Shown in pieces: positions 10,479 through 31,967 of a stretch of 64,000 nucleotides of DNA; the stretch's first letter is position 1, and each line of letters begins with the position of its first letter. This DNA is from Halarcobacter sp. (lineage in GTDB: Bacteria > Campylobacterota > Campylobacteria > Campylobacterales > Arcobacteraceae): the NCBI GenBank assembly GCA_963676565.1, contig OY781089.1, positions 1,440,001 through 1,504,000 on the forward strand. Reading direction: 5' to 3'. The notes beneath the pieces were generated by a model. That model had not been told where the DNA came from. It saw only the letters and a program-made list of their open reading frames with translations, and ran no database searches. A program made the position numbers and the translations under genes.

Positions 10479-10483
10479 GAATA

Positions 10484-11719: not shown

Positions 11720-11816
11720 TGAATCTTCCTATATATTTTTTGGAATCTTAAATAAGAAGTGTTAATAAAGTATAAATATAAACACTTCATTAACAAAACT
11801 ACTCTAAAATTAAATT

Positions 11817-15125: not shown

Positions 15126-15200
15126 TGATTTACCTCAATTCTTTTTTGAAGTAATAATGCTATCATAATTTTCTAAATAAAATTTCTTGGGAATTGGAAA

Positions 15201-15887
15201 ATGATAGAAAAATATGAAATAAAATTAAAAAAATCATCTATTCTTTTGGCTGAAGATGAAGATAAGTTAAGAGAAAGTTTTAAAAGAATTTTATTGCTTT
15301 ATGTGGATAAGGTTTATAGTGCTTCAAATGGGGAAGAAGCTTTAGAATTATATAATAAATATAATCCTAATATTTTAATTACAGACCTAAAAATGCCTAA
15401 ATTAAATGGTTTAGATCTAATTAAAACTATAAGAAAAGAAAACGAAGCTATACCAATTATTGTAACAAGTGCTTATACTGATCAAAACTTTTTATTAGAA
15501 TCAATTAAATTATCTTTAATTGAATATGTAGTTAAACCAATAGCAGAAGCTAATCTTTCAAAATTATTAGAAAATTGTGCAAAACAATTGTTAAAGAATT
15601 CGAAGACTATTATTACTTTTACTGATGAATCTTCATATGATTATGATAATAAAAGCTTTAAATTTAAAAATGAAACGGTTCTTCTTACTAATAAAGAAGT
15701 AGAATTTATTGAAATATTACTAGCTCATAGAGGTTCATTAGTAACTAAACATGAGATAGAAGATAAATTATATATTTATGAAGAAGCCCCTTTAAGTGCT
15801 CTAAAAAATCTTGTTTTTAAACTTAGAAAAAAACTAAAAGTTGACATAATTCAAACTGTATCAAAACTTGGATATATGATTAAATAG
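15201..15887 (+). CDS. OmpR-family response regulator
   Basis: LLAEDE, TDLKMP, YVVKP, wHTH; divergent from the kinase and upstream of nosZ. Confidence 0.93.
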   Translation: MIEKYEIKLKKSSILLAEDEDKLRESFKRILLLYVDKVYSASNGEEALELYNKYNPNILITDLKMPKLNGLDLIKTIRKENEAIPIIVTSAYTDQNFLLESIKLSLIEYVVKPIAEANLSKLLENCAKQLLKNSKTIITFTDESSYDYDNKSFKFKNETVLLTNKEVEFIEILLAHRGSLVTKHEIEDKLYIYEEAPLSALKNLVFKLRKKLKVDIIQTVSKLGYMIK

Positions 15888-16008
15888 AAAATTTTATAAA
15901 AAAAAACTACAGCGACTCAAAAGAAACTCAACATAATATACAATTCATTTAAGATTGATAGTTAATAATATAGATTAAGTAAATATTAAATTTACAATAA
16001 TTTATTTA

Positions 16009-16049
16009 TTGATTTTAATCAATTAAAAAGTTTATCAACTTGGTAAACT
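16009..16049 (+). promoter_or_regulatory. nosZ promoter: Nss/Dnr box plus extended -10
   Basis: TTGAT-TTTA-ATCAA (16009-16022), TTTATCAA (16031-16038), TGgTAAACT (16041-16049). Confidence 0.8.
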
Positions 16050-16091
16050 TTTAAGTGTCATCTGACAAATAGTATAGAAGGAGAAGTTAAG

Positions 16092-18689
16092 ATGAAGAAA
16101 TCACAAAGTAAATTTTCTTCAATGCTTTTAGGTACTGCACTTGTAGCTTCAGTTGCTTCTGGAGCTACAAATGAATTATCTAAAGTAATGAAAGAAAGAG
16201 GCTTATCTGAAATTGATGTTATCAGAGCAGCTAAAACTTATAACCCTACAGGGGTAAAAGATAAATATGTTGTATTTTCATCTGGTGGACAATCTGGACA
16301 AGTAATTGTTTATGGTGTACCATCAATGAGAATTCTAAAATACATTGGTGTATTTACACCAGAACCATGGCAAGGTTATGGTTTTGATAAAGACTCTTTA
16401 GAAGTTCTTAGACAAGGTAATATTAGAGGAAGAGAGATTAACTGGGGTGATACTCACCACCCAGCACTTTCTGAAATTGATGGAAAATATGATGGTAAAT
16501 GGCTAGCAATTAATGATAAAGCTAACCCGAGAATTGCAATTATTGATTTAGCAGATTTTGAAACAAAACAAATTGTTCCAAATCCAGTATTTAAATCAGA
16601 TCATGGTGGAGCATTTTTTACTCCAAATTCAGAGTATATTATTGAAGCATCACAATATGCAGCTCCATTTGATAACAATTATCACCCAATTGAAGAGTAC
16701 AAAGAGACTTATAGAGGTGGAGTTACAATGTGGAAATTCGACAATAAAATTGGTCGAATTATGCCAGATGATTCATTTACAATAGAGTTCCCTCCATATC
16801 ACCAAGATTTATCTGATGCAGGTAAAGGTATAAGTTACGGTTGGGGATTTACAAACTCATTTAATACAGAGATGTATACAGGTGGAATTGAAGTTGGTAT
16901 GCCACCAAATGAAGCTGGTATGTCAAGAAATGACACTGACTTCTTACATGTATATAACTGGGAAAAATTAGCTAAATTAGCTGAAAATCCCAAAAATGTA
17001 AAAGTTATAAATAATCATAAAGTTGTTCCTATGGATATTGCAGTTAAAAATAATGCTTTATTTTTAATTCCAGAACCAAAATCACCTCATGGTGTTGATG
17101 TTGATCCAACAGGTCAATACTTAGTTGTTTGTGGTAAATTAGACACTCATGCTTCAGTTTATGATTTTAAAAAAATCAAAAAATTAATTGATAATAAAGA
17201 ATATGCTGGTAAAGACCCATATGGTATTCCAATTTTAGATATGAAAAAATCTTTACATGGACAACTAGAATTAGGTCTTGGGCCTTTACATAACCAATAT
17301 TCTCCAGTTGATGGTGAAATTTATACATCTTTATATGTTGATTCACAAGTTGTAAAATGGAACTTTAAAGATCTGAAAGTTATTGATAAAGAAAACGTTC
17401 ACTACAACATTGGACACTTAGCTGGTATGGAAGGTAAATCTGCGGATCCTCAAGGGGACTATATTATTGCATTAAATAAATTAGCAATTGATAGATTCCA
17501 AAATGTTGGTCCTTTACATCCTCAAAATCACCAGTTAATTGATATTAAAGGTAAAACTATGGATTTACTTGTTGACATGCCACTTCCTTTAGGTGAACCT
17601 CACCAAGCGGTTGCAATTAGAGCAAGTAAACTTCATCCTCATGTAAGATATAAAATGGGTACAAACTCAAAAACTGGTAAAATTCATAAAGGTAAAACAC
17701 TTGCAGGAGAAGAGAGAATTGAAAGAGATGGTAAAAATGTAACTGTTTATGCTACTCTTGTTAGATCTCATATTAATCCTGAAAGAATTACAGTTAACAA
17801 AGGTGATAAAGTTACAATTCATATGACAAATCTTGAAAGAGCTCAAGATGAAACACATGGATTTACAATTGATAACTATGATATTCATGGCTCTCTTGAA
17901 CCAGGTGAAACTACAACATTAGAGTTTACTGCTGATGTTGAGGGTGTTTTCCCTTATTATTGTACAGAGTTCTGTTCTGCACTTCACTTAGAAATGATGG
18001 GTTATATGATGGTTAAAGACCCAGACAAAAAATATGTAAGCGCTCAAAAACTTAAAATGAAAACAATGTCTCCTGAAGAGTTAAAAGCTGAATATGATAA
18101 AACAGTTGCTGTAAATAATGCAACTGATGCAGTTATTCAATCAGTTGTTAAGTTCTTAAAAGACAACAAGTTCCAAGATCATAAAGTTGTAGCAAATCTT
18201 GTTACAGATGCACTTGACCAATATAATAAAATTCCTGAGCAAAAGAAAAAAGCAGATGAAGCATTAAAAGCAGGTGATACTGAAAAAGCAATTTTATTTG
18301 AAAATATGATTTGGCAATTAATGGTTAAAACTGCGGATGTTGGTATTAGAGCAAAAGATACATTAGTAAGAAAAATATCAACAAAACAAAGTGCTGCTGC
18401 TGCAAGAGGTGAAGTAGCATTTGCCGAAGGTGGTTGTAATGGTTGTCACGTGATTGGAAAAGTGTCATCTGGTCCAGATTTAACAGGTGTACTTCAAAGA
18501 CATGAAAATGGTGAACAATGGGTAAGTAACTTTATTTTAGATCCAGAATCTATGTATGATGATCCATATGTAAAAGGTATGATAGATTATTTCAATTTAA
18601 AAATGCCTAATCAACATATGAGTGAAGAAGAAACTAAAGATATTATTGAATATCTAAAATGGATTGAAGAGAACGCTAATCTTTTCTAA
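16092..18689 (+). CDS. nosZ: Clade II (Sec-dependent) cytochrome c nitrous oxide reductase
   Basis: Sec signal; FSSGGQSGQ, WGDTHHP, PKSPHG, GPLH; CuA CTEFCSALHLEM; C-terminal monoheme domain CNGCH...MP. Confidence 0.99.
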   Translation: MKKSQSKFSSMLLGTALVASVASGATNELSKVMKERGLSEIDVIRAAKTYNPTGVKDKYVVFSSGGQSGQVIVYGVPSMRILKYIGVFTPEPWQGYGFDKDSLEVLRQGNIRGREINWGDTHHPALSEIDGKYDGKWLAINDKANPRIAIIDLADFETKQIVPNPVFKSDHGGAFFTPNSEYIIEASQYAAPFDNNYHPIEEYKETYRGGVTMWKFDNKIGRIMPDDSFTIEFPPYHQDLSDAGKGISYGWGFTNSFNTEMYTGGIEVGMPPNEAGMSRNDTDFLHVYNWEKLAKLAENPKNVKVINNHKVVPMDIAVKNNALFLIPEPKSPHGVDVDPTGQYLVVCGKLDTHASVYDFKKIKKLIDNKEYAGKDPYGIPILDMKKSLHGQLELGLGPLHNQYSPVDGEIYTSLYVDSQVVKWNFKDLKVIDKENVHYNIGHLAGMEGKSADPQGDYIIALNKLAIDRFQNVGPLHPQNHQLIDIKGKTMDLLVDMPLPLGEPHQAVAIRASKLHPHVRYKMGTNSKTGKIHKGKTLAGEERIERDGKNVTVYATLVRSHINPERITVNKGDKVTIHMTNLERAQDETHGFTIDNYDIHGSLEPGETTTLEFTADVEGVFPYYCTEFCSALHLEMMGYMMVKDPDKKYVSAQKLKMKTMSPEELKAEYDKTVAVNNATDAVIQSVVKFLKDNKFQDHKVVANLVTDALDQYNKIPEQKKKADEALKAGDTEKAILFENMIWQLMVKTADVGIRAKDTLVRKISTKQSAAAARGEVAFAEGGCNGCHVIGKVSSGPDLTGVLQRHENGEQWVSNFILDPESMYDDPYVKGMIDYFNLKMPNQHMSEEETKDIIEYLKWIEENANLF

Positions 18690-18700
18690 AAAATTCAAAA

Positions 18701-18740
18701 AAGAGAGGGAAAAAAGTCTTAAGCTTTTTTCTTCTTTCTT
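18701..18740 (+). terminator. Probable stem-loop/terminator after nosZ
   Basis: Purine arm AAGAGAGGGAAAAAAG pairs imperfectly with CTTTTTTCTTCTTTCTT. Confidence 0.5.
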
Positions 18741-18780
18741 GATTACCATCAATGAGTAAATTTATCAATTTTGGTAATCT
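18739..18780 (+). promoter_or_regulatory. Internal nosB promoter: Nss/Dnr box plus extended -10
   Basis: TTGAT-TACC-ATCAA (18739-18752), TTTATCAA (18761-18768), TGgTAATCT (18772-18780). Confidence 0.78.
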
Positions 18781-18793
18781 TTTAAATAAGAAA

Positions 18794-18833
18794 TTTTAAA
18801 CTATAAATTATAAAAATAATTTATAGTTTAAAA
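18794..18833. repeat. Perfect 18-bp inverted repeat in nosB leader
   Basis: TTTTAAACTATAAATTAT-AAAA-ATAATTTATAGTTTAAAA. Confidence 0.9.
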
Positions 18834-18852
18834 CTTAAAATGAAGGACAAAA

Positions 18853-19647
18853 ATGCATACTAGTTTTATTAAATCAAAAATTTATGCATCTTTAGCATTA
18901 ATATTGCTAACACTGGCATTTACTTTTCCTATGATTGCATTTCATGGAACATTAAATGCAATTGATGAAGATAGAATTGAAGAAATTTCTCCTCTATCTA
19001 TAAAAACTTGGAATTTTTATAATCAAGGAAGATATAAAAGTACTACTACTCCTTTAGAAGCGCATAATGATTTAGAAAAGATGATAGAAAACTCTGCTGA
19101 AATTGGTGTTGCTTCACTTCCCATTTGGTCTTGTTCTTTAGAAGCACCTAACTACCCTAAAAAAGCATTTCCTGAAGGTATCCCAGTATTTTTCCATTTT
19201 GATGGTTTTAGTGGAGAAGTTCATGAAATGAATACAATTAATCATTATGTAGGAATGGACCCAATGTGGGCAGGAGGTCAAATTGAAAGAGAAATAGGTA
19301 TTTATGCGCTTTTAGGACTTTCTTTATTTATGATTTATTTTATTTTATTTCATAAAAAGATATTAACTTATATTATGTATATTCCAGCTGCATTACCTCT
19401 TCTATTTATTGCTGATTATTCTTATTGGCTTTATTGGTTCGGACACAACTTACATGATTGGGGAGCATTTAAAATAAAACCTTTTATGCCAACAGTTTTT
19501 GGTGATGGAAAAATTGCACAATTTACAACACACTCTTATCCAACAATTGGATTTTATGTAATTTTAGCAATTGGATTTTTCTCATTATTATCAATTCTTT
19601 CTAAAAATAAAGCAATGAAAGAAACAGGTATTAACTATAAGGTTTAA
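18853..19647 (+). CDS. nosB: Clade II nos membrane protein NosB
   Basis: LEAPNYP..EGI, EMNTINHYVGM, WLYWFGHNL, PFMPTVFG.KIAQFTTHSYP. Confidence 0.92.
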   Translation: MHTSFIKSKIYASLALILLTLAFTFPMIAFHGTLNAIDEDRIEEISPLSIKTWNFYNQGRYKSTTTPLEAHNDLEKMIENSAEIGVASLPIWSCSLEAPNYPKKAFPEGIPVFFHFDGFSGEVHEMNTINHYVGMDPMWAGGQIEREIGIYALLGLSLFMIYFILFHKKILTYIMYIPAALPLLFIADYSYWLYWFGHNLHDWGAFKIKPFMPTVFGDGKIAQFTTHSYPTIGFYVILAIGFFSLLSILSKNKAMKETGINYKV

Positions 19648-20861
19648 TGATGTTTAGATTTTTTGTAGCCATTTTCTTATTATTTGTTAATTTTTCTTTT
19701 GCAAACCTTTTACAAGAAGCAATTAATAAAGCAAAAGCTGGTTCGATTTTAAAACTTCCAAAGGGAGTTTATAAAGGACGAATTAAAATTGATAAACCTT
19801 TAACTATTATTGGAAAAGAAGAGGGGGTTATAATTGATGGACTAGGTGTTGGAACTGTTGTTTCAATAAACAGCCCTTATGTAACACTTAAAAACTTAAC
19901 CATACAAAATAGTGGAAGTAGACATGAAAATTTAGACTCAGGTATTAAAATTGAAAATTCTAAGCAATCAGAAATTTCAAATTGTATTATAAGAGATTCA
20001 TTATTTGGAATTGATATGTCTACAACAAATAACTCTATTATCTCAAATAATTATATAACTTCAAAGGATCTGTCTCTTGGATTAAGAGGTGATGGACTTA
20101 GAATTTGGTATTCAAATGACAATATAATCAAAAAAAATAAACTTGTTAAATCAAGGGACATGGTTGTTTGGTATTCCCATGGTAATCAAATAGTTGAAAA
20201 TTATGGTGAAAATAATAGATATTCTCTACATTTTATGTATGCGGGTAAAAACTATGTTCACAATAATACTTATAAATTTAACTCAGTTGGAATATTTTTT
20301 ATGTATAGCAAAGATACTATTGCAACTGGAAATGTTATAAAAAGTTCATTGGGAGCTACTGGTATGGGCATTGGACTTAAAGATGTTTCAAATTTTACAC
20401 TTAAAGACAACACGGTTATTTATAATGCAATTGGAGTATATATTGATAGATCTCCTTTTGAGCCAGATACAAATAATTGGATAGAAAACAATAAAGTTTT
20501 ATATAACTCTGAAGCACTGCATTTTCACTCTTTATGTGAAAATAATATTATAAAAGGAAACTCTATTATAGGAAATATTGAAGATATTGTAAACGATAGT
20601 AGGGGTGCAAAAACATATGAAAATGAGATAGTAGGAAATTATTGGGATAATTATGAAGGATTTGATAAAAACGCAGATAATATAGGAGATACTCCTCATA
20701 AAGTTTATCAGTATGCTGATCAATTATGGGTTTATAATACAGATGTAAAATTTTTCTACGGTTCTCCTGTTATCTCATTACTAAACTTTCTTGCAAAATT
20801 GGCTCCATTTAGTGAACCAGTTTTTTTAATGGAAGATTTAAAACCGAAGTTAAAGTTATAA
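19647..20861 (+). CDS. nosD: N2O reductase maturation protein NosD
   Basis: Beta-helix repeats; RGDGLRIW, RYSLHFMY, GNYWDNYEGFD..GD.P. Confidence 0.96.
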   Translation: MMFRFFVAIFLLFVNFSFANLLQEAINKAKAGSILKLPKGVYKGRIKIDKPLTIIGKEEGVIIDGLGVGTVVSINSPYVTLKNLTIQNSGSRHENLDSGIKIENSKQSEISNCIIRDSLFGIDMSTTNNSIISNNYITSKDLSLGLRGDGLRIWYSNDNIIKKNKLVKSRDMVVWYSHGNQIVENYGENNRYSLHFMYAGKNYVHNNTYKFNSVGIFFMYSKDTIATGNVIKSSLGATGMGIGLKDVSNFTLKDNTVIYNAIGVYIDRSPFEPDTNNWIENNKVLYNSEALHFHSLCENNIIKGNSIIGNIEDIVNDSRGAKTYENEIVGNYWDNYEGFDKNADNIGDTPHKVYQYADQLWVYNTDVKFFYGSPVISLLNFLAKLAPFSEPVFLMEDLKPKLKL

Positions 20862-20871
20862 GGATTTAATA

Positions 20872-21615
20872 ATGGCAAGTATAAAAGAAGATAGAAGAGA
20901 TTTTATTAAGTTTTCAACATTAGGAATATTGGGATTAACTCTTGGAGCAGGGGTAGTTATAAGCCCTTATGCTTTAAATGCAGAGATGAGATTAAGACCA
21001 CCTGGTGCAGTAAATGAAAAAGAGTTTTTAGCATTATGTATCAAATGTGGACAATGTTTGCAAGTATGTCCTTATCATTCTATAGAATTAGCAGATATGG
21101 CAAAAGGTCATGGAGTTGGAACACCATATATTGATGCAAGAGAAAGAGGATGTTATGCATGTAGTGCTGTTCCTTGTGTTTTAGCATGTCCAAGTGGTGC
21201 ACTCGATCATAAAACAGAAAAGCCTGCAGATATAAAAATGGGAATTGCGGTTTTAGAGTTTCCTTACAGATGTTTAGCACGAACAAATACACCTGTTCCA
21301 AAAGGGCATAGTAAAAGAATACATGATTTTACAAATGCTCAAAATAATGTAACCCAATTAGAACTAGATATGCTTGAAAAACTTGATGAGTTTGAAGGAA
21401 AGCAGTGTACCATATGTGCGGATATGTGTCCAATTCCTAATCCATTAAGTGCAATTTCTATGGTTGGTGACGGTGTTGGTAAAAAGCCTGAAGTTTATGA
21501 TGGTTGTATTGGATGTGGTGTATGTGAAGAGTTATGTCCAGCAAGTGAAGCAGCAATTGTAATAAAACCTAGAATGTTATATGAAGACTATTATGAAAAA
21601 GGAAACAAATCATGA
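20872..21615 (+). CDS. nosG: NapG/MauM-like 4Fe-4S protein NosG
   Basis: Tat RRDFIK, LRPPGA, CIKCGQCLQVCP and further CxxCxxC motifs. Confidence 0.93.
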   Translation: MASIKEDRRDFIKFSTLGILGLTLGAGVVISPYALNAEMRLRPPGAVNEKEFLALCIKCGQCLQVCPYHSIELADMAKGHGVGTPYIDARERGCYACSAVPCVLACPSGALDHKTEKPADIKMGIAVLEFPYRCLARTNTPVPKGHSKRIHDFTNAQNNVTQLELDMLEKLDEFEGKQCTICADMCPIPNPLSAISMVGDGVGKKPEVYDGCIGCGVCEELCPASEAAIVIKPRMLYEDYYEKGNKS

Positions 21616-22208
21616 TAAAAAAATTATTATTACCATTAGTAATTATTCTATTAGTTTCAGGATGTTCTGAAAAAAAAGAAGAGAAAAAAGTAGAACAAAA
21701 AGTTACTCAAAAACAAGAATCTCTCAAAATAGAAATAGAAGAAAATGAAAATGCAAAAGAGATTAAAGTAGCTGAAAAAAATGAAAAATCAGATAAAAAT
21801 GAAACATATTATTTTAATTATGGTGTAAAAAGCGAATATGATCCAAATTCAAAACCAGCGAATGAAGATGCCTCAGTTAGAGTTAAACCTAGAACTTCTA
21901 TTGATGCAAATATGCATGTTAGAAGTCCCTATGAAAAAGTTAAAATTTCAATGTTAGTAAAAAGACTTAGTAAAGAGTTTATTGTTAAGTGTTCAGCTTG
22001 TCATAATGATTATGCTAATGGGATTATTGGTCCATCATTACTTGATAAAGATGATAAATTTATTTATGAAAGTATTCTTAAGTTTAAAAATAATAAAGAT
22101 GCAAATGTTTTAATGACGGGTTTAGTTAATCAAATGGATGAAGAAACTATTAAAAGAATTGCAAAAGAGATATTTGAATTTAATAAGCAAGTTAAGGAAA
22201 TGCAATGA
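21612..22208 (+). CDS. nosC1: Monoheme cytochrome c lipoprotein NosC1
   Basis: Lipobox LVSGC, CSACH, IIGPSL; position as in the Wolinella nos cluster. Confidence 0.85.
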   Translation: MIKKLLLPLVIILLVSGCSEKKEEKKVEQKVTQKQESLKIEIEENENAKEIKVAEKNEKSDKNETYYFNYGVKSEYDPNSKPANEDASVRVKPRTSIDANMHVRSPYEKVKISMLVKRLSKEFIVKCSACHNDYANGIIGPSLLDKDDKFIYESILKFKNNKDANVLMTGLVNQMDEETIKRIAKEIFEFNKQVKEMQ

Positions 22209-22690
22209 AAAAAGTAATAGCCTTAATTTCTACAGCTATTGTTTTGGGTCTTATGGTTTTAACATTTTTTAAGGGACCAGCATATCAAGGTGGTAAAGCA
22301 GGTCATATAATTGAAGACTTAAAGGCTTTAGAGCAAAAAGCTAAAATTGAACCAATTAAAGAGAAAGATGTAGGGGCCGAAAAATTAAAAGCCCTTAGAG
22401 ACAAAGCTGGTAATACCTCTAGTTTTGAAGTTAGTGATGCATATAAAAGTAAATGTGCTTCATGTCATGGAGTTGATGGAAGTGGAACTCAAAATGGTAA
22501 AAAACTTATGGGACCTGGTTTAATTGGCCAAAGTGAGGATAAGCTTTTAAAAGATTTAGTTGATTTTAAAGCAGGTAGAAAAGAGAATTTTATTATGAAA
22601 GGTTTATTAATGAATCTTTCAGAAGAAGATTTAAAAAGTTTTGCAAAAGAGATTTCACAGTTTGAAGCACGAAAAAATGCTTTAAAGTAA
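22205..22690 (+). CDS. nosC2: Monoheme cytochrome c NosC2
   Basis: N-terminal anchor, CASCHG, distal M; position. Confidence 0.85.
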   Translation: MKKVIALISTAIVLGLMVLTFFKGPAYQGGKAGHIIEDLKALEQKAKIEPIKEKDVGAEKLKALRDKAGNTSSFEVSDAYKSKCASCHGVDGSGTQNGKKLMGPGLIGQSEDKLLKDLVDFKAGRKENFIMKGLLMNLSEEDLKSFAKEISQFEARKNALK

Positions 22691-22700
22691 GGATTAAAAA

Positions 22701-23606
22701 ATGGATAAATGGAATAATAGAGAAACAATAAAAAAATCAAGCTTTATATCGACATTTTTTGATAAAACAAAAGATGGAAAAACAATAATTTCATATAGAA
22801 TGAAGAGGTGGATAGTAATTATTTCAATTCATTTATTATTTTTCTTATCTTTTGCTATTGATATTCAAACATTAGAAGGAACATTAAATGGTTCAAGATT
22901 CTTAGGGTTTCACTTAATTGACCCTTTTACAACTATTCAAATGTATCTTGCAACATATCATATGCCTGTAAATATTGTAATTGGTACGGTTACAATTTTA
23001 TTTTTTTATCTACTTATAGGGGGACGAACTTATTGTTCATGGGTTTGTCCTTATGGATTATTAAGTGAAATTGGTGAGAAGATTCATAATACACTAGTTA
23101 ATAAAAAAATTATTAAAGAGAGAAAATTTGACCATAGAGTAAGACATGTCTTTTGGGCAATGTTTATGGTTATGGCATTTACAAGTGGATATTTAGTATT
23201 TGAAACTTTTAATGTAGTTGGAATTTTAAGTAGATTTATTGCTTATGGATGGAGTTTAGCTTTATCATGGGTTTTAATTGTTTTTTTAATTGAAGTATTT
23301 TATTCAAGACGTGCTTGGTGTACATATATTTGTCCTATTGGAACAACATATGGGTATATAGGAAAAGTAAGTGGTCTTAGAATAGAGTGGAATGATAGTT
23401 GTGATCATTGTATGGTTTGTCATGATGTTTGCTTTGAAAGTCAAGTTTTAGAGTTGACAAAAGGTAAATATGATGAAGAAAGAAAAGAAAAAGGAATTAA
23501 AAAGCAATACGTAACAGGTGCAGATTGTACTTTATGTGGAAGATGTATTGATGTTTGTCACTCTGATGCTTTAAAATACGACTTTAGGTTAAAAGGTTTA
23601 ATTTAA
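22701..23606 (+). CDS. nosH: NapH/MauN-like polyferredoxin membrane protein NosH
   Basis: GRTYCSWVCP, RAWCTYICP, two CxxCxxC clusters. Confidence 0.93.
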   Translation: MDKWNNRETIKKSSFISTFFDKTKDGKTIISYRMKRWIVIISIHLLFFLSFAIDIQTLEGTLNGSRFLGFHLIDPFTTIQMYLATYHMPVNIVIGTVTILFFYLLIGGRTYCSWVCPYGLLSEIGEKIHNTLVNKKIIKERKFDHRVRHVFWAMFMVMAFTSGYLVFETFNVVGILSRFIAYGWSLALSWVLIVFLIEVFYSRRAWCTYICPIGTTYGYIGKVSGLRIEWNDSCDHCMVCHDVCFESQVLELTKGKYDEERKEKGIKKQYVTGADCTLCGRCIDVCHSDALKYDFRLKGLI

Positions 23607-23607
23607 A

Positions 23608-24252
23608 ATGATTAAAATAGATAATTTAACAAAAAGATTTGGCTCTCACATATCTTTAGATAATGTAAGCATACAATTTGATAAAAATGATCATATTGCA
23701 ATAATGGGACCAAATGGTGCTGGAAAAACAACTTTAATTAGATCAATTATGGGATATTATCATCCAAATTCAGGGGAGGTTCTTATAAATGGATTGAATC
23801 CAATTAAGAATAGAACAAAAGTTTTAGATTCTATTTCTTTTGTTCCTCAACTTCCACCACCTATTAAACTTAGCTTAAATGAGTTAATGAAATATATTCA
23901 AGCTAGTTCTAATGTAGATATTGCAGAGATTATTCATTATGCAAATGAGATGAAATTAGATATTAATGCAAATTTAAATAAATCTTTTTTCAAATTATCA
24001 GGTGGTATGAAACAAAAAATGTTAATTGCAATAAGCTTAGCAAAAAAAAGTGAAATCATAATTTATGATGAACCAACGGCAAATTTAGATCCAAAGGCAA
24101 GGGATGATTTCTATAGATTATTAGAAAAGAATGAAAAAGAAAAAATTTCACTTTTTGTAACCCATAGACTTGATGAGGTTAAGGATATCGTTAATAGACA
24201 GATTTATATGGATTTAGGGAAAGTTATTTCTGATGAAAGAGTAGGAAATTAA
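23608..24252 (+). CDS. nosF: ABC ATPase NosF
   Basis: GPNGAGKT, LSGGMKQK, DEPT; position. Confidence 0.9.
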   Translation: MIKIDNLTKRFGSHISLDNVSIQFDKNDHIAIMGPNGAGKTTLIRSIMGYYHPNSGEVLINGLNPIKNRTKVLDSISFVPQLPPPIKLSLNELMKYIQASSNVDIAEIIHYANEMKLDINANLNKSFFKLSGGMKQKMLIAISLAKKSEIIIYDEPTANLDPKARDDFYRLLEKNEKEKISLFVTHRLDEVKDIVNRQIYMDLGKVISDERVGN

Positions 24253-24253
24253 T

Positions 24254-24712
24254 ATGAATAATATATCGCGTCGAAATTTTATTTTATTATCTGGTCTTGG
24301 TATCCCATTATTCTTTAGTGCTTGTGAAAAAGAGAGTTCAGGAGAAATACAAGAAATTAAATGGGATAGAGATATGTGTGATAGATGCAAAATGGTAATT
24401 AGTGATAGAAAGCATGCTGCGCAAGTTATAAATATGAAGAATGGAAGAGTTTATAAGTTTGATGATATAGGCTGCGTTCCTTTATGGTTTAAAGAAGAAA
24501 ATATCACGTGGAAAGATAATGCAAAAATTTGGATTACAGATGTTGACACAGGAAAATGGATTGATGCAAGAAAAGCATTTTATGATGGTATGACTATAAC
24601 ACCAATGGGATATGGGTTTGCAGCTCATGAAACAAAAAAAGCAATAAAGCCTGACCTTGAAGTTTTTACTTTCAGTGATATGGAAAAAAGAGTTTTGGCT
24701 AGGGGACGATAA
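24254..24712 (+). CDS. nosL: NosL-family copper chaperone, Tat-lipoprotein
   Basis: SRRNFI, FFSAC lipobox, CDRCKMVI, FDDIGC, TPMGYG. Confidence 0.88.
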   Translation: MNNISRRNFILLSGLGIPLFFSACEKESSGEIQEIKWDRDMCDRCKMVISDRKHAAQVINMKNGRVYKFDDIGCVPLWFKEENITWKDNAKIWITDVDTGKWIDARKAFYDGMTITPMGYGFAAHETKKAIKPDLEVFTFSDMEKRVLARGR

Positions 24713-24713
24713 G

Positions 24714-25541
24714 GTGAAGAATTTATTACTAATAGCTTATTTAGATCTAAAAGAATCGATTAGAGCAAAATGGTTTATTGTTTATTCTCTTGTTTTTGGA
24801 GGAATGATAGCTTTATTTTTTGTAGCAGGTGTTACACAATCACAGGTTATGGGATTTAGTGGATTAAGTAGATTATTACTTATGTATATACAAGTTACAA
24901 TTGTAATTTTACCTATATTTATATTAATAACAACAGTACGGTCTATTTCTGGAGATAGAGATACTCATATTTTAGAATATATGTTATCTTTTCCAATTTC
25001 ATTAAAACAATATTATTGGGGTAAAATTTTAGGAAGATTTATTACAGTTTTTTTACCTGTATTTTTTGCAATGGTTTTTGCAATAATCTATGGAATCTTT
25101 ATCGGCGCTGATATCCCTTGGGATATATTTATTTTGTATACAGGTTTATTGTTTTCACTTACTTCAGCATTTTTAGGTATAGCATTTTTTATCTCTTCAT
25201 TTGTAAAAACAAGTGAAATTGCTTTAGGAATATCATTTTTTATATGGATATTTTTATTAGCCTTTTTAGATATTGCTTTAATCTCTTTAATGATGCAAAA
25301 TAGATTTGATGAGTCACTTATTATTACAATTGCTCTTTTAAATCCTATGGAGATTTTTAGAGTTGCAGCAATCTCTTTATTTGATCCATCCTTAACCGTA
25401 ATGGGACCAGTAGCATTTTATATTTTAGATACGTTTAAACAAACTACTTTTGTATTGATTTCTATAGCTTACCCAGTTATATTAGGATTAGTTTTTGCCT
25501 TTTTAGGTTATTTTATATTTGCGAAAAAAGATTTAGTTTAA
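24714..25541 (+). CDS. nosY: ABC permease NosY
   Basis: Start moved to GTG 24714; 6 TM; LSFPIS, GK..G, LLNPMEIFR. Confidence 0.9.
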   Translation: MKNLLLIAYLDLKESIRAKWFIVYSLVFGGMIALFFVAGVTQSQVMGFSGLSRLLLMYIQVTIVILPIFILITTVRSISGDRDTHILEYMLSFPISLKQYYWGKILGRFITVFLPVFFAMVFAIIYGIFIGADIPWDIFILYTGLLFSLTSAFLGIAFFISSFVKTSEIALGISFFIWIFLLAFLDIALISLMMQNRFDESLIITIALLNPMEIFRVAAISLFDPSLTVMGPVAFYILDTFKQTTFVLISIAYPVILGLVFAFLGYFIFAKKDLV

Positions 25542-25550
25542 AGGATATTC

Positions 25551-26039
25551 ATGAAAAAATTATCGACAATTATATTAAGTTGTATGTTTGGCTTTCTAGC
25601 TCTTAATGCAGAAGTTACGTACTCTATGAATTTTGACAAAGAAACAAAAAGTTTAGTTAGAAAAATGTATGTTTATAAAAATCCTGCTTGGGTTTCAAAG
25701 GTTGTAAATAAAGACTTTAAAGAACTTTATTTTGTAAGTCCTAAATCTATGTTTGAATTCTATTTCAATCCTGAAAAATGGGAAGAAGCTAATACCAAAG
25801 ATTCAACAGAATTAAAAGAACTTATTGTAACAGACTTTAAAACTCACAAAGTAATAAATGCTAGGGGTGCTTTTTATGTATATGGAAGTAATAAAATCTC
25901 ACCAGCAGGGGATGATTTACCAGCATTTGAAAGCTATGATGATGCCGAATCATTTGCAAAAAGTAATAATGGTAAAAGAATTTTTTCATTTAAAGAAATG
26001 AAAAAAGGTTTGATTGAATTATTAAATGGAGACATTTAA
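25551..26039 (+). CDS. nosL: NosL-family protein (lacks N-terminal CxxC)
   Basis: YKNPAW, FVSPKSM, VTDF, AFYVYGS...PAGDDLPAF...AESF. Confidence 0.8.
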   Translation: MKKLSTIILSCMFGFLALNAEVTYSMNFDKETKSLVRKMYVYKNPAWVSKVVNKDFKELYFVSPKSMFEFYFNPEKWEEANTKDSTELKELIVTDFKTHKVINARGAFYVYGSNKISPAGDDLPAFESYDDAESFAKSNNGKRIFSFKEMKKGLIELLNGDI

Positions 26040-26067
26040 TAATTCATAAAGTTTTAAAGGAGTAATT

Positions 26068-26790
26068 ATGAAAAAATTGTTAATCATATTTGTAATGGGA
26101 TTATTGTTGTTTTCTTCATCCTCTTTTGCTAAAGATATGGAAAAAAAATTTAGTAAAGTTGCTTCAGGGAAACCTGAATTAATCCAAGAAGGTGCAGAAA
26201 AAGGTTTTTGTCCAGTATGTGCAATGTCTATTAAGCACAACTACAAAACGAGTCATGGAGTTGTTGCAAAAAAGGCTAAAGATAATAGACAATATTGTTC
26301 TGTACGATGTGTTCTTGTTGATGGGAAGCATGCAAATGAGGGGAATAAGCATGTTGTAGTAGATGCAAAAACTGAAAAAATTATCGATGCCAAAACGGCA
26401 TATTATGTATTAGGAAGTAAAGCACCTGGAACTATGTCAAAGATTAGTAAGTATGCATTTGCTTCAAAAGATGATGCTAAAGCTTTTAATTCTAAATTTG
26501 GTGGAAAAATTGTTTTATATGATGAAATGATAGCTAGTGCAAAAGAGTCGTTAAATAGTGATATTGCAATGGTAAATATGAAGAAAAATAAAATGATGTA
26601 CCCAATGGGCAAAAAACTTTATAAATCAAATTGTAGACCAATTAAAGATTTTTCTTCTTATAAAAGAATCAATGAGTTAAAAACTGACATTATGAAAAAT
26701 AAAATATGTGATGACTCAATTAAGATGAAAAAACTTCAAGCAGTGACTTTATATCTATGGGAAATTAAAAGATTAGGTAAATCTTTATAA
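26068..26790 (+). CDS. NosL-fold periplasmic protein with cytochrome-c-like tail
   Basis: Sec signal; CPVCAM...TSH, QYCSVRC, AYYVLGS..PGTMS.ISKYAF; tail GKKLY..NC...LQAVTLYLW. Confidence 0.78.
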   Translation: MKKLLIIFVMGLLLFSSSSFAKDMEKKFSKVASGKPELIQEGAEKGFCPVCAMSIKHNYKTSHGVVAKKAKDNRQYCSVRCVLVDGKHANEGNKHVVVDAKTEKIIDAKTAYYVLGSKAPGTMSKISKYAFASKDDAKAFNSKFGGKIVLYDEMIASAKESLNSDIAMVNMKKNKMMYPMGKKLYKSNCRPIKDFSSYKRINELKTDIMKNKICDDSIKMKKLQAVTLYLWEIKRLGKSL

Positions 26791-26796
26791 AAAGTA

Positions 26797-26830
26797 AAAA
26801 AGAGATGTGTCTTACCTTCTCATCTCTTTT
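26797..26830 (+). terminator. Stem-loop between NosL-like paralogues
   Basis: AAAAGAGATG...CATCTCTTTT. Confidence 0.55.
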
Positions 26831-26854
26831 ATCAGCATTTTGAGGAATACTATT

Positions 26855-27991
26855 ATGAAAAAACTATTACTAAGTGCCTTAATTATACAGTTTCTATTAA
26901 TAGGCGTGAGTCAAGGAAATAATTTTAATAAAACAGTTAAAAAAGATATAGAGCTTGTACAAAAAGAAGATATAAAAACTTGGTGTGCAGTTTCAGGTGA
27001 AGAACTTTATAAAAATTATAAAACTTCTCACACTGCCCATGACTATGATGGTAAACCAAGACAATATGCTTCCCTTAGTTATTTAGTTTTTGATGTAGAG
27101 GAAAACCATGTAAAGCTTCAAAATTCTAAAGTAGTAGATGTAAGTTCCAATAAATTAATTCCCACAAAAGATGCATATTATGTAATGGGGAGCAAAGTAA
27201 AAGGAACAAAAAGCAAGATAAGTAAACTTGCTTTTGCAAAAAAAGAAGATGCAAAGATATTTGTATCTAAAAATGGTGGTAATATTGTAAGTTTTGAAGA
27301 AGCTTTTGCAGAAGCAGAAAAGAGTTTAAAAGAAGATATGAAACCTTCAAATCCAAAAAAAATACAAAGAGAATATCGTAAAGGCAAAAAGATTTATGAG
27401 GCCAAATGTAGTAATAAAGAGATTGATTTAAAAGCCTATAATTGGATTAATTACTTAAAAGCAGATTTAAAAAATCAGTGTAAAAAACTTAAGGAAAATC
27501 AACTTCATTCTGTAGCCTTATATCTATGGAATGTTAAGCGTATTGAAAATAGACTAGTTAATAAAATAGTAGAAGTAAGAAAAGAGGATAAATGTCCAGT
27601 TTGTGGAATGTTTGTGTATAAATATCCAAAATGGGCAGCTAAACTAGAGTTTGTAAAACATGAGCATAAGCACTATTATGTTTTTGATGGGGTTAAAGAT
27701 ATGATTAAATTTGTTCATAATCCTAAAAAATATAATGAACACGAAAAGATGACCGAGCAAAAGCTGTTAGTAACAGATTATTATACTCAATATGCAATTG
27801 ATGGGAAAGAGGCTTTTTATGTAGTTGGGAGTGATACTTTAGGTCCTATGGGAAATGAATTAATACCTTTTAAATATGAAGAAGATGCAAAAATTTTTTT
27901 AAAAGATCATCAAGGAACTTCAATTTTTAAGTTTAGTGAAATTACTTCAGAATTAATATGTAAATTAGATGGCCTAGAAACATGCGAATAA
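26855..27991 (+). CDS. Two-domain NosL-fold periplasmic protein
   Basis: Start moved to ATG 26855 (GAGG RBS). Degenerate first NosL domain (CAVSG, QYASL), cytochrome-like linker, intact second domain (CPVCGM, FDGVKD, GPMG). Confidence 0.8.
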   Translation: MKKLLLSALIIQFLLIGVSQGNNFNKTVKKDIELVQKEDIKTWCAVSGEELYKNYKTSHTAHDYDGKPRQYASLSYLVFDVEENHVKLQNSKVVDVSSNKLIPTKDAYYVMGSKVKGTKSKISKLAFAKKEDAKIFVSKNGGNIVSFEEAFAEAEKSLKEDMKPSNPKKIQREYRKGKKIYEAKCSNKEIDLKAYNWINYLKADLKNQCKKLKENQLHSVALYLWNVKRIENRLVNKIVEVRKEDKCPVCGMFVYKYPKWAAKLEFVKHEHKHYYVFDGVKDMIKFVHNPKKYNEHEKMTEQKLLVTDYYTQYAIDGKEAFYVVGSDTLGPMGNELIPFKYEEDAKIFLKDHQGTSIFKFSEITSELICKLDGLETCE

Positions 27992-28263
27992 GTTCAAAAA
28001 AAATTTTCTACTGTTTTGTTAGTGTAGTAATTGCTTCTTTAATATTTCAATTTGTGTTTTTATCCTCAAAAACACAAGACAATGAGACTAAAGTGCTTTT
28101 TGTCAAATTAAGTGGAATACCTGACTTAGCATTTAATAGTAATGTTCCATACCTAAGACACAGATCATTAAGTGTAGTGAATGATTTATATTTTTTACAT
28201 CCTGGAATTGAACCCCTTGGTCTTGGAATATTTATTCAACAAACTTCTTTACAAGTGAGGTAA
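27982..28263 (+). CDS. Small single-TM hypothetical protein
   Basis: N-terminal TM then FVKLSGIPDLA..YLRHRSLS; tightly packed with both neighbours. Confidence 0.7.
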   Translation: MRISSKKIFYCFVSVVIASLIFQFVFLSSKTQDNETKVLFVKLSGIPDLAFNSNVPYLRHRSLSVVNDLYFLHPGIEPLGLGIFIQQTSLQVR

Positions 28264-28264
28264 T

Positions 28265-29434
28265 ATGAATACAATATTTGATTACACCTTACGTTCTTTA
28301 AAACGATTTGGGATGAAAAACATTTCTATAGCTTTAATTTTTATGATTTTAGTTTGGCTTTTATCTTCAGGAATGATGATTAGCCATTCTTTAAATCATG
28401 AACTAAAAACTCTGTCAAAAGGTCTACCTGATATAGTTATACAAAACTATAAAGGTGGAAAAGTAAAACCTTTTGATGAAGAAATTGTTGAGCAACTGTG
28501 GGATATTAAAGGAATAAGTAATGTAATGGGACGTATTTGGGGACAATACTACTTAGAAGATGCAAATATTTATGCCTCTATTGTAGGTGTTACTGCTTTT
28601 GAAGAACAGTATAAAAAAAGCCTAACAAAAATTGTAGAAGATTTCCCAGAAAGTGATGATGCTATTCCTTCAATGATGATATCAAAAAATCTAAAAGAGT
28701 TATTGTTTAAATATGATATGCAGGAGTATGTAAGCTTTAAGCAAAATGATGGAACTTATCTTAAAATGAAACTTGGCGGAACTTTCAAAGCAGATACCCA
28801 AATGGAAAGTAATGATATTATCTTAATTCCTACAGAAATTGCTAGAAACTTATTAGCTATTGAAGAGGGAAGTTTTACAGATGCAGTAATAAGTGTAGCT
28901 AATCCTGAAGAAGTAGAAACGATAGCAGCAAAAATTGCTTTTGAATATCCAAGTCTAAGGGTTATTACAAAAGCTGATATTATTAAGGGTCATCAAATTT
29001 TATATGATTATAAAAGTGGTTGGTTTTTAGCTTTACTTATTACTACATTTATTACCTTTGCAATTATACTTTATGATAAAGCAAGTGGACTTAGGAGTGA
29101 AGAAAAGCAAGAAATAGGTGTTTTGAAAGCTTTAGGTTGGGAAATTGATCATATTATTAGACATAAACTAACTGAAGCTTTAATACTTTCCCTTTCAGCT
29201 TTTTTTGTAGGTGTTAGTTTAGCAATCTTCTATGTTTTCATTTTAGATGCACCAATCTTAAAATATATATTTACTGGATTTTCTAATTTAAAACAACCTT
29301 TTGATTTAGTTTTTGTATTAGATATAAAAATGATTGCACTACTATTTTTTACAACTGTACCCCTTTATTTAGCAGCATCAATTATTCCATCTTGGAAAGC
29401 AGCAGTTGAAGATGCTGGAGAGGTAATAAGATGA
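28265..29434 (+). CDS. LolC/E / MacB / FtsX-type ABC permease
   Basis: 1 TM + large periplasmic domain + 3 TM; EIGVLKALGW, IIPSWKAA. Confidence 0.9.
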   Translation: MNTIFDYTLRSLKRFGMKNISIALIFMILVWLLSSGMMISHSLNHELKTLSKGLPDIVIQNYKGGKVKPFDEEIVEQLWDIKGISNVMGRIWGQYYLEDANIYASIVGVTAFEEQYKKSLTKIVEDFPESDDAIPSMMISKNLKELLFKYDMQEYVSFKQNDGTYLKMKLGGTFKADTQMESNDIILIPTEIARNLLAIEEGSFTDAVISVANPEEVETIAAKIAFEYPSLRVITKADIIKGHQILYDYKSGWFLALLITTFITFAIILYDKASGLRSEEKQEIGVLKALGWEIDHIIRHKLTEALILSLSAFFVGVSLAIFYVFILDAPILKYIFTGFSNLKQPFDLVFVLDIKMIALLFFTTVPLYLAASIIPSWKAAVEDAGEVIR

Positions 29435-30090
29435 TTCAAGTTAAAAATGTTTCAAAAATATTTAATGAAGGAACACCAAAAGCTTTTAATGCTTTAGAAG
29501 ATATTTCATTACATGTAAAAAAAGGTGAAGTTGCATTACTTAAAGGAATTAGTGGTAGTGGGAAAAGTACTTTACTATCTTTGTTTGCAGCACTATATCA
29601 ACCATCAAAGGGAGAAATTTTAATTGATGGAGAAGCAATTTCCCAATATCCTGAAAATTTTGCAAGTAGATTTAGACGTAATAATATTGGATTTATCTTT
29701 CAAAAATTTAATTTGATTTCTACTCTAACAGTTCTTGAAAATGTACTTCTTCCAACTTTACCTGATGATATTGATAAACTTGAAGAGGCAATGGAACTTC
29801 TAGAGTTATTTCATATTTCGCCAAAAACGAATGTTGAAGTTAAACATCTTTCAGGTGGTGAACAACAAAGAGTTGCAGTTGTAAGGGCTCTTATTAATGA
29901 TCCAAAACTAATTCTCGCTGATGAGCCAACTGCAAATTTAGACCAAGCTCTAAGTATTAAGATATTAGATTATTTTGAAAAAATAATTAAGCAGGAAAAA
30001 ACACTTGTTATTGCAACCCATGATCCACTATTATTAGAATGGGGAATGTATGAGACTTGTTTTGAAATGAAAAATGGGAAATTATTATGA
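29431..30090 (+). CDS. LolD-like ABC ATPase
   Basis: GISGSGKST, IGFIFQKFNL, LSGGEQQRVA, LADEPTANLD. Confidence 0.93.
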   Translation: MIQVKNVSKIFNEGTPKAFNALEDISLHVKKGEVALLKGISGSGKSTLLSLFAALYQPSKGEILIDGEAISQYPENFASRFRRNNIGFIFQKFNLISTLTVLENVLLPTLPDDIDKLEEAMELLELFHISPKTNVEVKHLSGGEQQRVAVVRALINDPKLILADEPTANLDQALSIKILDYFEKIIKQEKTLVIATHDPLLLEWGMYETCFEMKNGKLL

Positions 30091-31046
30091 TTTTACTCTC
30101 TCCATATATTCAAAGTGTTTTGATTGTTGAATCTATAATTTTTCTTTTATGCTTAGTTGGACTCTTCTGGGCAGTTAAAATATCATTATATTTTAATCCA
30201 AAGTTAACAATTTCAAAGCAGTATAACCTTAATAAAAAGAGTTATTTAGTTGCTACAATTATAAAATTTGCTATAACTGTAAAGCTTCCACTTTTCTTGT
30301 TTTACATCTGGACTATGGATACCATTTCAGAAATAGTGCCAGGTGCAATGTGTGCAGCTGGAATTGTGAGTGCTACAAAGTTTGGACCAGAACTTTTAAT
30401 GATTAAAGTGTTGATTTTATTTGGTTTATTTGCTTGGTTATTACTTCACTCTCTTGATATTAATGAAGTAGATTATCCATATACGAAATTAAAGTTTATA
30501 ATATTTCAGCCTATTTGTATTCTAATAGGAATTGAGCTTTTTATGGAAGTTTATCATTTTATGCAAATAAGTACTGATGTTCCTGTTCACTGTTGTAGTG
30601 TTGTATTTGAACAAAGTTCTGCTGGAACTGCTTCTTTGATGCAAAATGAACCTTTACTATTAGTTCTATTTTACTCTATATTTATTGCAAGTTTAATATT
30701 TGGACTATTTAAAAAAGCGATATTATTTAGTATTTTTTCTCTTGCTTTTATGTTTGTAGGAATTCAAACTTTGATTAGGTTTTTTTCTTCTTATGTATAT
30801 GAACTACCTACGCATAAATGCCCTTTCTGTTTACTTCAAAGTGACTACTATTATGTGGGATATCTAATCTACATATTATTTTTTATAGGTGCTGCACTGG
30901 CCGTAAATGTATTTATTCTTTATTTATTAAAAAAAACACCAAAGAAAAGCTTTTACAAAATATCAATAATAGCAAATACTTTACTAGTAGTAATCTTGAG
31001 TCTCTATCCAATTATATACTATATAAAAAATGGTGTGTGGCTTTAA
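30087..31046 (+). CDS. Cys-rich polytopic membrane protein of unknown function
   Basis: About 8 TM; loop motifs PGAMCAAG, VHCCS, YELPTHKCPFC. Confidence 0.75.
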   Translation: MILLSPYIQSVLIVESIIFLLCLVGLFWAVKISLYFNPKLTISKQYNLNKKSYLVATIIKFAITVKLPLFLFYIWTMDTISEIVPGAMCAAGIVSATKFGPELLMIKVLILFGLFAWLLLHSLDINEVDYPYTKLKFIIFQPICILIGIELFMEVYHFMQISTDVPVHCCSVVFEQSSAGTASLMQNEPLLLVLFYSIFIASLIFGLFKKAILFSIFSLAFMFVGIQTLIRFFSSYVYELPTHKCPFCLLQSDYYYVGYLIYILFFIGAALAVNVFILYLLKKTPKKSFYKISIIANTLLVVILSLYPIIYYIKNGVWL

Positions 31047-31056
31047 AGGGGAGATG

Positions 31057-31605
31057 ATGAAAAAAAACTTTTTATTACTTATATCTTTTATTTGTTTTTT
31101 GCAAACAATAAGTTTTGCACAGAATTTTCAGAAATATACAAAAAACATTAAGCTTTTACAGAAAGGGAAACATTCTGACATTTGTCCAGAGTGTGGAATG
31201 AAGCTATCAGTGTTTGGAAAAACAAATCACGCAGTTAAGCTTAAAAATGGAAAATATATTCAGTTTTGCTCAATAAGAGATTTAATTAAAGCTGAGAGGG
31301 AAAAAGGTTTCCCTATTGAACAATACTTAGCAGTAGATGCAAAAAATGAAATTTTTAAAGATGCTACAAAAATGTGGTACGTTGTAGGAAGTAGTATAAA
31401 AGGAACAATGTCGACTGTAAGTAAAATATCTTTCAGTGAGAAAAAAGATGCTATAGAATTTAAAAAAGAGTTTGGAGGAGAAGTTATGTCATTTATAAAA
31501 GCAAAAGAAATTTCAGAAAAAATTCTTGATAAAGATATGAAAGAAATAAATAGAAAAAATGCACTTAGTTCTAAATTTCATGGAAATATACATTTAAATT
31601 ATTAG
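31057..31605 (+). CDS. NosL-fold periplasmic protein
   Basis: Start moved to ATG 31057 (AGGGGAG RBS); CPECGM..TNH, QFCSI, YVVGS..GTMS.VSK. Confidence 0.8.
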   Translation: MKKNFLLLISFICFLQTISFAQNFQKYTKNIKLLQKGKHSDICPECGMKLSVFGKTNHAVKLKNGKYIQFCSIRDLIKAEREKGFPIEQYLAVDAKNEIFKDATKMWYVVGSSIKGTMSTVSKISFSEKKDAIEFKKEFGGEVMSFIKAKEISEKILDKDMKEINRKNALSSKFHGNIHLNY

Positions 31606-31899
31606 TTAAAGAGATTTATATTGATTTCTATAATTTTTTCTAAGAATAAGTTTATTTTTATATCATTAAAAAAAGGGGCTAAAATGATGATTGGCACCAT
31701 AAATCTTTTAAATGGTATTATTACATATGAAAATATTTTATTAAAAAACTATGGTGAAAAAAATAAAACTCTATACATATAATTAAAATGAATTGAAAAT
31801 TTAAATATTTAACTACAATATTAATATTGCAATTTGTAATATTTTTAATATTTACTCTTCGAAAAGTATATAATAACTACATATAAGGAAAATTTTTTA

Positions 31900-31918
31900 A
31901 CGGTACTTTATACGGTAC
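31900..31918. repeat. 12-bp-period direct repeat upstream of dinB
   Basis: ACGGTAC-TTTAT-ACGGTAC in an otherwise extremely AT-rich spacer. Confidence 0.8.
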
Positions 31919-31967
31919 ATATTAAAAAATAACTTTTAAAATCCTCATAAAATAGGAGTTTTTTTAA

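Follow-up and report, generated by a model that had tools for sequence, protein, structure and literature searches.

The DNA analyzed here, referred to as the window, is a stretch of 64,000 nucleotides (nt) from Halarcobacter sp. (GenBank assembly GCA_963676565.1, contig OY781089.1, positions 1,440,001 to 1,504,000 of the forward strand), and our subject is a cassette of seven genes at window positions 26068-31605. The cassette follows a nos cluster, with a gap of 28 nt between the end of nosL and the first cassette gene. It combines proteins of the NosL family with an ATP-binding cassette (ABC) permease and ATPase and two proteins of no known family. We lettered the genes A to G in 5'-3' order (lengths in amino acids, aa; scores are to Pfam models):

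26068..26790, + strand: A, secreted NosL-domain protein, 240 aa (PF05573, 60.9 bits)
26807..27991, + strand: B, double NosL-domain protein, 394 aa (PF05573, 143.9 bits, in two stretches)
27982..28263, + strand: C, N-terminally anchored protein, 93 aa (no family)
28265..29434, + strand: D, FtsX/MacB-type (type VII) ABC permease, 389 aa (FtsX, 37 bits)
29431..30090, + strand: E, ABC ATPase of the LolD/FtsE/MacB nucleotide-binding domain type, 219 aa (ABC_tran, 124 bits)
30087..31046, + strand: F, eight-helix membrane protein, 319 aa (no family; AlphaFold2 model)
31030..31605, + strand: G, secreted NosL-domain protein, 191 aa (PF05573, 60.9 bits)

The open reading frame (ORF) list of the window shows these genes packed on one strand with overlapping or abutting ends; four junctions overlap, each by 4-17 nt. 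An initial annotation of the window had described seven packed genes that include three NosL proteins with four NosL domains, and both the ORF coordinates and the Pfam matches confirm it. The genes are real and not chance ORFs, because they are kept as a unit in other genomes (see below). The source genome has a low GC content (~28%), and the nearest outside locus, in a Halarcobacter metagenome-assembled genome (L017), shares 99% identity. A promoter and terminator scan of positions 15000-32500 did not rise above shuffled sequence (98 compared with 105.6 expected, and 7 compared with 5.3, respectively). Four oligo-dT RNA runs from an organism labelled as a host gave 0 reads here, a result with no bearing on expression.

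A, B, and G all score above the Pfam cut-off for NosL (24 bits). The true start of B is probably at MKKLLL (~26855) and that of G probably at MMKKNF (~31054). Read from the sequence by eye rather than with a predictor, the N-termini of all three resemble signal peptides ending in ...SFA/K (A), ...SQG/N (B), and ...SFA/Q (G), with no lipobox Cys; the lipoprotein anchor of the NosL proteins studied to date was not found in any of them. In A the motifs are CPVCAM...CSVRC and GTM, and a helical extension at the C-terminus contains two Cys; CxxCxM is present in 13 of 13 homologues of A in the loci that we fetched. G carries CPECGM...CSIRD and GTM.

We take the CxxCGM and G(A/P)MG motifs of NosL to be its metal ligands. 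In the second domain of B they read CPVCGM and GPMG, are invariant across 39 homologues (alignment A5), and align this domain to solved NosL (7og7, 7osf, and 7znq). The AlphaFold2 model of B (predicted local distance difference test, pLDDT, 91.4) matches 7osj_H, 7og7, 7znq_L, 7osf_H, and 7osg_H (E 2.7e-7 to 1.2e-6, TMt 0.70-0.74). In the window, the metal-ligand residues are gone from the first domain of B (CAVSGE for CPVCGM and GTK for GTM). The Cys and Met residues that the initial annotation saw in its proposed NosL carriers are thus kept in A, G, and the second domain of B, and lost from the first domain of B.

This loss is shared by a clade of B proteins comprising the window and loci L018, L019, L024, L027, and L101, in which domain 1 is without CxxCGM, CSxRC, and GTM. 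The same clade has an extra C-terminal Cys pair (C..DG..CE) that is absent from other B proteins. The four-Cys pattern CxxC...Cx3C, typical of Zn ribbons, occurs in A and in the first domain of B. The helical linker of B has two invariant Cys, and that part of the model matched no solved structure. A cytochrome-c-like reading of the A and B linkers was dropped, as they gave no Pfam match even at E 10 and no fold match.

D and E form an ABC pair. D exceeds the cut-off of the FtsX model (PF02687; 37 bits compared with 25.5), which places an FtsX C-terminal permease domain in the protein, and falls just under that of MacB_PCD (PF12704; 24.6-25.1 bits compared with 27). Its periplasmic domain of ~200 aa, which probably lies between transmembrane helices 1 and 2 (TM1 and TM2), has no conserved Cys or His (alignment A3). 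When a profile of 66 D homologues was compared with solved chains, only LolC, MacB, LolF, and YtrF were found, and these weakly (E 2e-4 to 1e-2). The initial annotation had depended on D not being LolE, and this was borne out: D scores 17-18 bits on the LolC/E model TIGR02212 (cut-off 362), while a LolC/E-like gene elsewhere in the genome (C1:2423226-2424410) scores 266 bits. E has MJ0796, LolD, FtsE, and MacB as its closest solved matches, and reaches 188 bits on the LolD model TIGR02211, under the cut-off of 307.75. The small protein C matches no family in Pfam or NCBIfam. It has a conserved periplasmic segment, GLPDLA...RHRS, in which R59 and H60 are nearly invariant (alignment A4).

F is a new protein family. 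As the initial annotation had it, this is a membrane protein of about eight helices with the loop motifs PGAMCAAG, HCCS, and THKCPFC; the AlphaFold2 model has eight transmembrane helices (pLDDT 90.7, predicted template modelling score 0.86). Across 87 homologues GAMC, CC, and HxCPxC are invariant (G86, A87, M88, and C89; C169 and C170; H243, C245, and C248) while the H of HCCS is not conserved, and the motifs are retained in nos-linked, mcc-linked, and orphan copies alike. By the positive-inside rule, with the KKTPKK and FKK loops inside, we infer that all three motif loops face the periplasm. F gave no match in Pfam or NCBIfam, including the DsbB, VKOR, and DsbD families, and no solved relative in Foldseek at E ≤1e-3; a wide structural search returned generic helical bundles only (Z ≤12.8 over half of the model). 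Its relatives number at least 1684 in a set of 5.8 billion proteins, all unnamed, and 1027 clusters at E ≤1e-3 in a 50%-identity library. They do not vary in length, and a search of proteins of 560-2000 aa turned up no fused form, which by the tool's own note is weak evidence. The nearest Protein Atlas clusters, a lead only, are unnamed hypothetical proteins of Nitrospirota and Thermodesulfobacteriota.

Two candidate results on F were set aside. The idea that it is an internal duplication of four plus four helices was dropped (hhalign probability 0.5%). A predicted complex of D, C, and F, with F as the partner, gave interface scores (ipSAE) of 0.60, 0.60, and 0.63, the best of three controls scoring 0.00, and we do not count it as evidence. 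The verdict of the tool was weak support; the pLDDT of the partner was 77, the runs agreed in at least 78% of contacts, and no interface was given. The tool was calibrated on 157 solved complexes, of which 116 attained the mark, and on 215 mismatches, of which 2 did; scores of 0.60 or less account for only 18 of those solved complexes and for both passing mismatches. The run also differs from that calibration in having its own alignments and three chains.

Is this set of genes a unit? The initial annotation had asked whether F and C co-occur with NosL and LolDE-like genes. We scanned for relatives of F, using one genome per species; 539 loci were found and 80 kept, and in 57 of these at least 4.6 kb lies upstream of F. 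The ATPase is beside F in 57/57 loci, the permease in 54/57, and the small protein C in 41/57. A NosL gene lies upstream on the same strand in 42/57 and anywhere within 8 kb in 53/57. Where at least 700 nt follow F (73 loci), a NosL-type gene trails it in 32. The genes are therefore a conserved unit. We conclude that the cassette is autonomous, that the genes at this locus make up one copy of it, and that its core is B, C, D, E, and F, often with another NosL after it.

The cassette was initially taken for an appendage of the nos cluster, and this was not upheld. Two or more kinds of nos genes are found in only 23 of the 80 loci, or in 12 of the 31 with at least 9 kb on both sides. The genome of the window itself has three copies: the nos-linked copy described above, a complete orphan copy among unrelated genes (C1:3080777-3085864), and a third copy at C1:2855713-2860257, which is linked to an mcc cluster. 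Among F-bearing Campylobacterota genomes, 46/168 have no nosZ. The nos-specific reading is thus too narrow. Among 19 orphan loci, three (L025, L071, and L091) have a gene for a DUF4149 membrane protein directly upstream of the module.

The third copy forms the 3' end of a same-strand mcc cluster, after mccA-B-C-D-ccsBA-Sel1. The cluster opens with two-component regulator genes; a 706-aa protein and an FKBP isomerase come next, then NrfC-like and NrfD-like proteins, a CcsBA haem lyase, and two Sel1 proteins, and the module stands last. Against the solved sulfite reductase MccA (4rkm), the 706-aa protein reaches 1032 bits. MccA is described as a haem c-copper enzyme. The same order of mcc genes and module was found in two other families (G216 and G189). 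In the former (L098, G216:C1:370000-389000) a UPF0093/CopD-like membrane protein is encoded before the Sel1 gene (10024-10557).

To place these copies in a wider sample, we examined 401 Campylobacterota genomes that were at least 90% complete. Of these, 168 have F, 149 have NosZ, and 140 have MccA-like genes. Every genome with a close MccA (at least 960 bits; mccABCD-type) carries F (100/100). The survey found 191 F copies. Among the 150 of these that were listed, mccA is 9.6-13.3 kb away in 64 cases and nosZ within 25 kb in 18; one copy is near both, and 69 are near neither, some of them through contig breaks. The mcc-linked F proteins are a lower-scoring class: 64 of the 69 listed copies under 294 bits are mcc-linked. 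In a quick tree with a midpoint root, three mcc-linked F proteins from three families form one clade (Shimodaira-Hasegawa-like approximate likelihood ratio test, 99), and the nos label on the same tree needs 13 changes.

MccA-like genes also include a second class (49-54% identity, 40 genomes). It keeps both non-haem Cys columns, which we presume to be the copper ligands of MccA. In eight fetched loci of this class (L102-L109; G053, G149, G022, G185, G229, G226, G199, and G282) the MccA-like octahaem gene adjoins that of a ~690-aa protein of no known kind, and the fetched stretches hold no mccBCD and no module. CcsBA is encoded in five of the eight (L102, L103, L106, L107, and L108) and was not found in the stretches L104, L105, and L109. 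Seven MccA-like genes, all of genus g21 (G255, G284, G212, G257, G146, G068, and G122), have exactly one in-frame TAA; these could be pseudogenes or something else.

The nos cluster of the window has NosL genes of its own, and these bear on the role of the nos-linked copy:

16092..26039, + strand: clade II nos cluster, nosZ(cytochrome c)-B-D-G-C1-C2-H-F-(NosL-like)-Y-L
24254..24712, + strand: NosL-like lipoprotein between nosF and nosY (NosL, 28.5 bits)
25551..26039, + strand: terminal NosL of the nos cluster (NosL, 67.5 bits)

CxxC is missing from the terminal NosL (162 aa), in which SPAG stands where solved NosL has GAMG. None of its 24 full-length homologues in the fetched nos loci (L017-L096) has CxxC, and the Met ligands are absent as well. 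In Campylobacterota nos clusters, the terminal NosL may not act as a conventional copper chaperone. The NosL-like protein encoded between nosF and nosY (152 aa) has an RRNF motif, a lipobox (FFSAC), and MCDRCKM; its gene is conserved in that position in other nos loci, and CxxCxM is present in 61 of 72 homologues of this type. In other genomes, a gene of this type usually closes the module. Because the terminal NosL is without CxxC and Met ligands, the ligand-bearing NosL domains at this locus are those of the module and of the protein encoded between nosF and nosY. The initial annotation had assumed that NosF, NosY, NosD, and NosL already cover copper delivery. That premise is doubtful here, and since the terminal NosL has no CxxC, the assumption that it covers the chaperone step may fail in this lineage.

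Another NosL-containing cluster lies elsewhere in this genome, on the - strand (L016, G000:C1:2292000-2306000, ~1766-11881). It encodes a TonB-dependent receptor, DsbD_2, a 907-aa protein with Fer4_5 and NosL domains, a NapH-like Fe-S protein, an HgdB-like dehydratase component, a BcrAD/BadFG-type activase, ExbB, ExbD, and TonB.

What does the cassette do? Because this genome has three copies, with one beside each of two copper enzymes, the cassette probably supplies copper to enzymes outside the cell membrane. The three copies and the constant presence of the cassette in mccABCD clusters are the strongest new pointers, and they suggest a role in metallating periplasmic copper enzymes. From the membership of its proteins in known families and from their gene neighborhoods, we infer copper handling, and our reading, which we give about an even chance, is that the cassette would be an ATP-driven machine for the hand-off of Cu(I) to periplasmic copper enzymes. 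F would hold Cu(I) on a periplasm-facing cluster of Met, Cys, and His, and would pack against D and C within the ABC complex. In E, the binding and hydrolysis of ATP would shift the periplasmic domain of D, in the manner of other MacB-type mechanotransducers, and this movement would drive transfer between F and the CxxCGM and Met sites of the soluble NosL-domain proteins. The latter would then load a client: NosD or NosZ at the locus described here, MccA at the mcc-linked copy, and other clients for the orphan copies.

A bolder form of this proposal, possible but tentative, would make the cassette a general periplasmic copper insertase with dedicated clients. F would be the Cu(I) donor, the motor would push Cu(I) onto the NosL carriers, and each paralogous copy would serve a single enzyme. 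For the haem-copper site of MccA, the copper-insertion system so far missing would be the mcc-linked copy; at nos, the linked copy and the NosL-like protein encoded between nosF and nosY would jointly take on the task for which the terminal NosL of Campylobacterota has no ligands.

Several observations weigh against copper hand-off. F resembles no known copper transporter in Pfam, NCBIfam, Foldseek, or the wide structural search, and its set of CxxC, CC, and C is as compatible with thiol-disulfide chemistry as with copper binding. The genes around orphan copies are mostly housekeeping ones, and no copper enzyme was seen among them; a DsbD_2 (CcdA-like) gene adjoins the trailing NosL in 4 of 19 orphan loci (L033, L045, L060, and L087), and a rhodanese-like gene is found in one of the 19. 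In L098, a thioredoxin-like protein (15897-16289) is encoded after the trailing NosL of the mcc-linked copy. The survey counts are not independent and are inflated by kinship, because 75 of the MccA genomes come from one genus. NosZ occurs without F in 27 of 149 genomes, and 32 of the 168 genomes with F have neither nosZ nor a close mccA. The second MccA-like class has no module nearby, and only 5 of its 40 genomes have F. Finally, a 2019 paper on Wolinella succinogenes reportedly tested a gene named mccL, which is perhaps one of these NosL genes.

The main rival to copper hand-off is a thiol-disulfide or sulfur (persulfide) relay. F would shuttle electrons or sulfane sulfur via its CxxC, CC, and C to periplasmic partners, either keeping the Cys ligands of MccA, CuA, and NosL reduced or supplying the sulfide of CuZ, and the ABC motor would reset or gate F. 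Five invariant Cys in three loops placed in the periplasm recall the logic of DsbB and VKOR, a comparison only, as no tool found kinship, and indeed F matches neither of these families nor DsbD in Pfam or NCBIfam. Both neighboring enzymes use Cu-S chemistry. The MccA structure paper is said to have described no inorganic sulfide at the copper site. On the other hand, the source of the CuZ sulfide is still called unclear in a 2026 review. The DsbD_2, rhodanese-like, and thioredoxin-like neighbors noted above could be taken as further support for a relay, although DsbD_2 and thioredoxin genes also argue that reducing power comes from elsewhere than F. The constant companion of F is NosL, a family of Cu(I) chaperones, and a relay for the two enzymes leaves the 32 carrier genomes with neither of them to be accounted for. 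We consider this explanation unlikely, if still deserving of attention.

Other explanations seem to us weaker still. One is periplasmic copper defense or buffering, in which the cassette captures stray Cu(I), removes or sequesters it, and so shields Cu-sensitive periplasmic haem and Fe-S maturation, its placement beside nos and mcc reflecting shared regulation rather than delivery. Other MacB-type systems expel periplasmic substrates (MacAB-TolC), and orphan copies without a client exist; however, no outer-membrane channel, adaptor, cus, or copA gene was seen among the neighbors scanned in Campylobacterota. Because all 100 mccABCD-type genomes carry F and the mcc-linked copies form a dedicated clade, a client-specific helper suits the data better than a general defense, which we regard as improbable. 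The slimmest chance goes to some other cargo: another thiophilic metal (for example, Zn), a non-metal ligand, or no cargo in this sense, the motor maturing or releasing the NosL-type proteins themselves. According to a review, solved NosL forms a Cu/Zn heterometal site; the Zn-ribbon type pattern of A and of the first domain of B would suit such a cargo, and the orphan contexts reveal no client. Nevertheless, the only recurrent enzyme neighbors that we found are two copper enzymes, and the domain kept invariant in every copy carries CxxCGM and GPMG and aligns with the solved NosL chaperone. We keep ATP-driven copper hand-off as the preferred reading.

The cassette is widespread and includes two undescribed protein families, C and F. 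To our knowledge, the route of copper to periplasmic enzymes is known in detail for one case only, that of NosL-NosDFY-NosZ, and the cassette is proposed to offer another ATP-driven route of different construction. No sampled genome with the mccABCD-type sulfite reductase is without it. Its presence also matters for sulfite respiration in host-associated relatives of Campylobacter. It is often found in clade II N2O reducers such as Sulfurimonas, Arcobacteraceae, and Sulfurospirillum, and for this reason is of interest for the mitigation of N2O. A single genome with three copies, each in a different setting, amounts to a natural experiment for client specificity.

The initial annotation had known of no functional description of the module, and full-text literature searches found none; key mcc papers lie outside these searches, so that a partial account there is possible. 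The mcc literature that we reached covers mccABCD, ccsA1, and regulators, and we found in it no account of the ABC pair, the small protein, or F, and nothing on how MccA acquires copper. Ross et al. 2016 (PMC4794192) report that the nos cluster of Sulfurospirillum cavolei holds a 'five-gene insertion' in which an ABC permease and an ATPase are encoded, and note it only as an insertion, without function, family, or wider distribution. In three Sulfurospirillum loci (L028, L070, and L080) we found the module at the position of this insertion. Clade III nos clusters, according to the 2026 review, have a MacB-type ABC in place of nosDFYL.

How does the cassette compare with known systems? In the mcc cluster of Campylobacterota, one copy of the module is the 3' part of mccA-B-C-D-ccsBA (G000, G216, and G189). 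With the type VII systems MacB, LolCDE, and FtsEX, the cassette shares an FtsX domain and an ATPase like LolD and FtsE, and probably also the placement of a periplasmic domain between TM1 and TM2. However, D is very distant from these permeases (E 2e-4 at best, to LolC), and the partners of the ABC pair are NosL proteins and F rather than lipoproteins, hydrolase activators, or a TolC channel. The closest parallel in logic is the NosDFY-NosL system (Protein Data Bank entries 7osf-7osj and 7znq; NosL, 7og7). Both join a NosL-type protein to an ABC ATPase that acts, or in the cassette would act, on the periplasmic side and imports no solute, and the NosDFY-NosL genes, like the window copy of the cassette, lie in or beside nos clusters. 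In contrast, the permease of the cassette is of the FtsX/MacB type whereas NosY is of the ABC-2 type, and the cassette has no partner like the beta-helix protein NosD; NosD, NosF, and NosY are encoded by separate upstream genes. The cassette also adds F and C, its NosL proteins are soluble, multi-domain, and without a lipobox, and it occurs in non-nos contexts, both mcc-linked and orphan. As proposed, the cassette would be analogous and not homologous to NosDFY-NosL: the same logic, built from unrelated parts.

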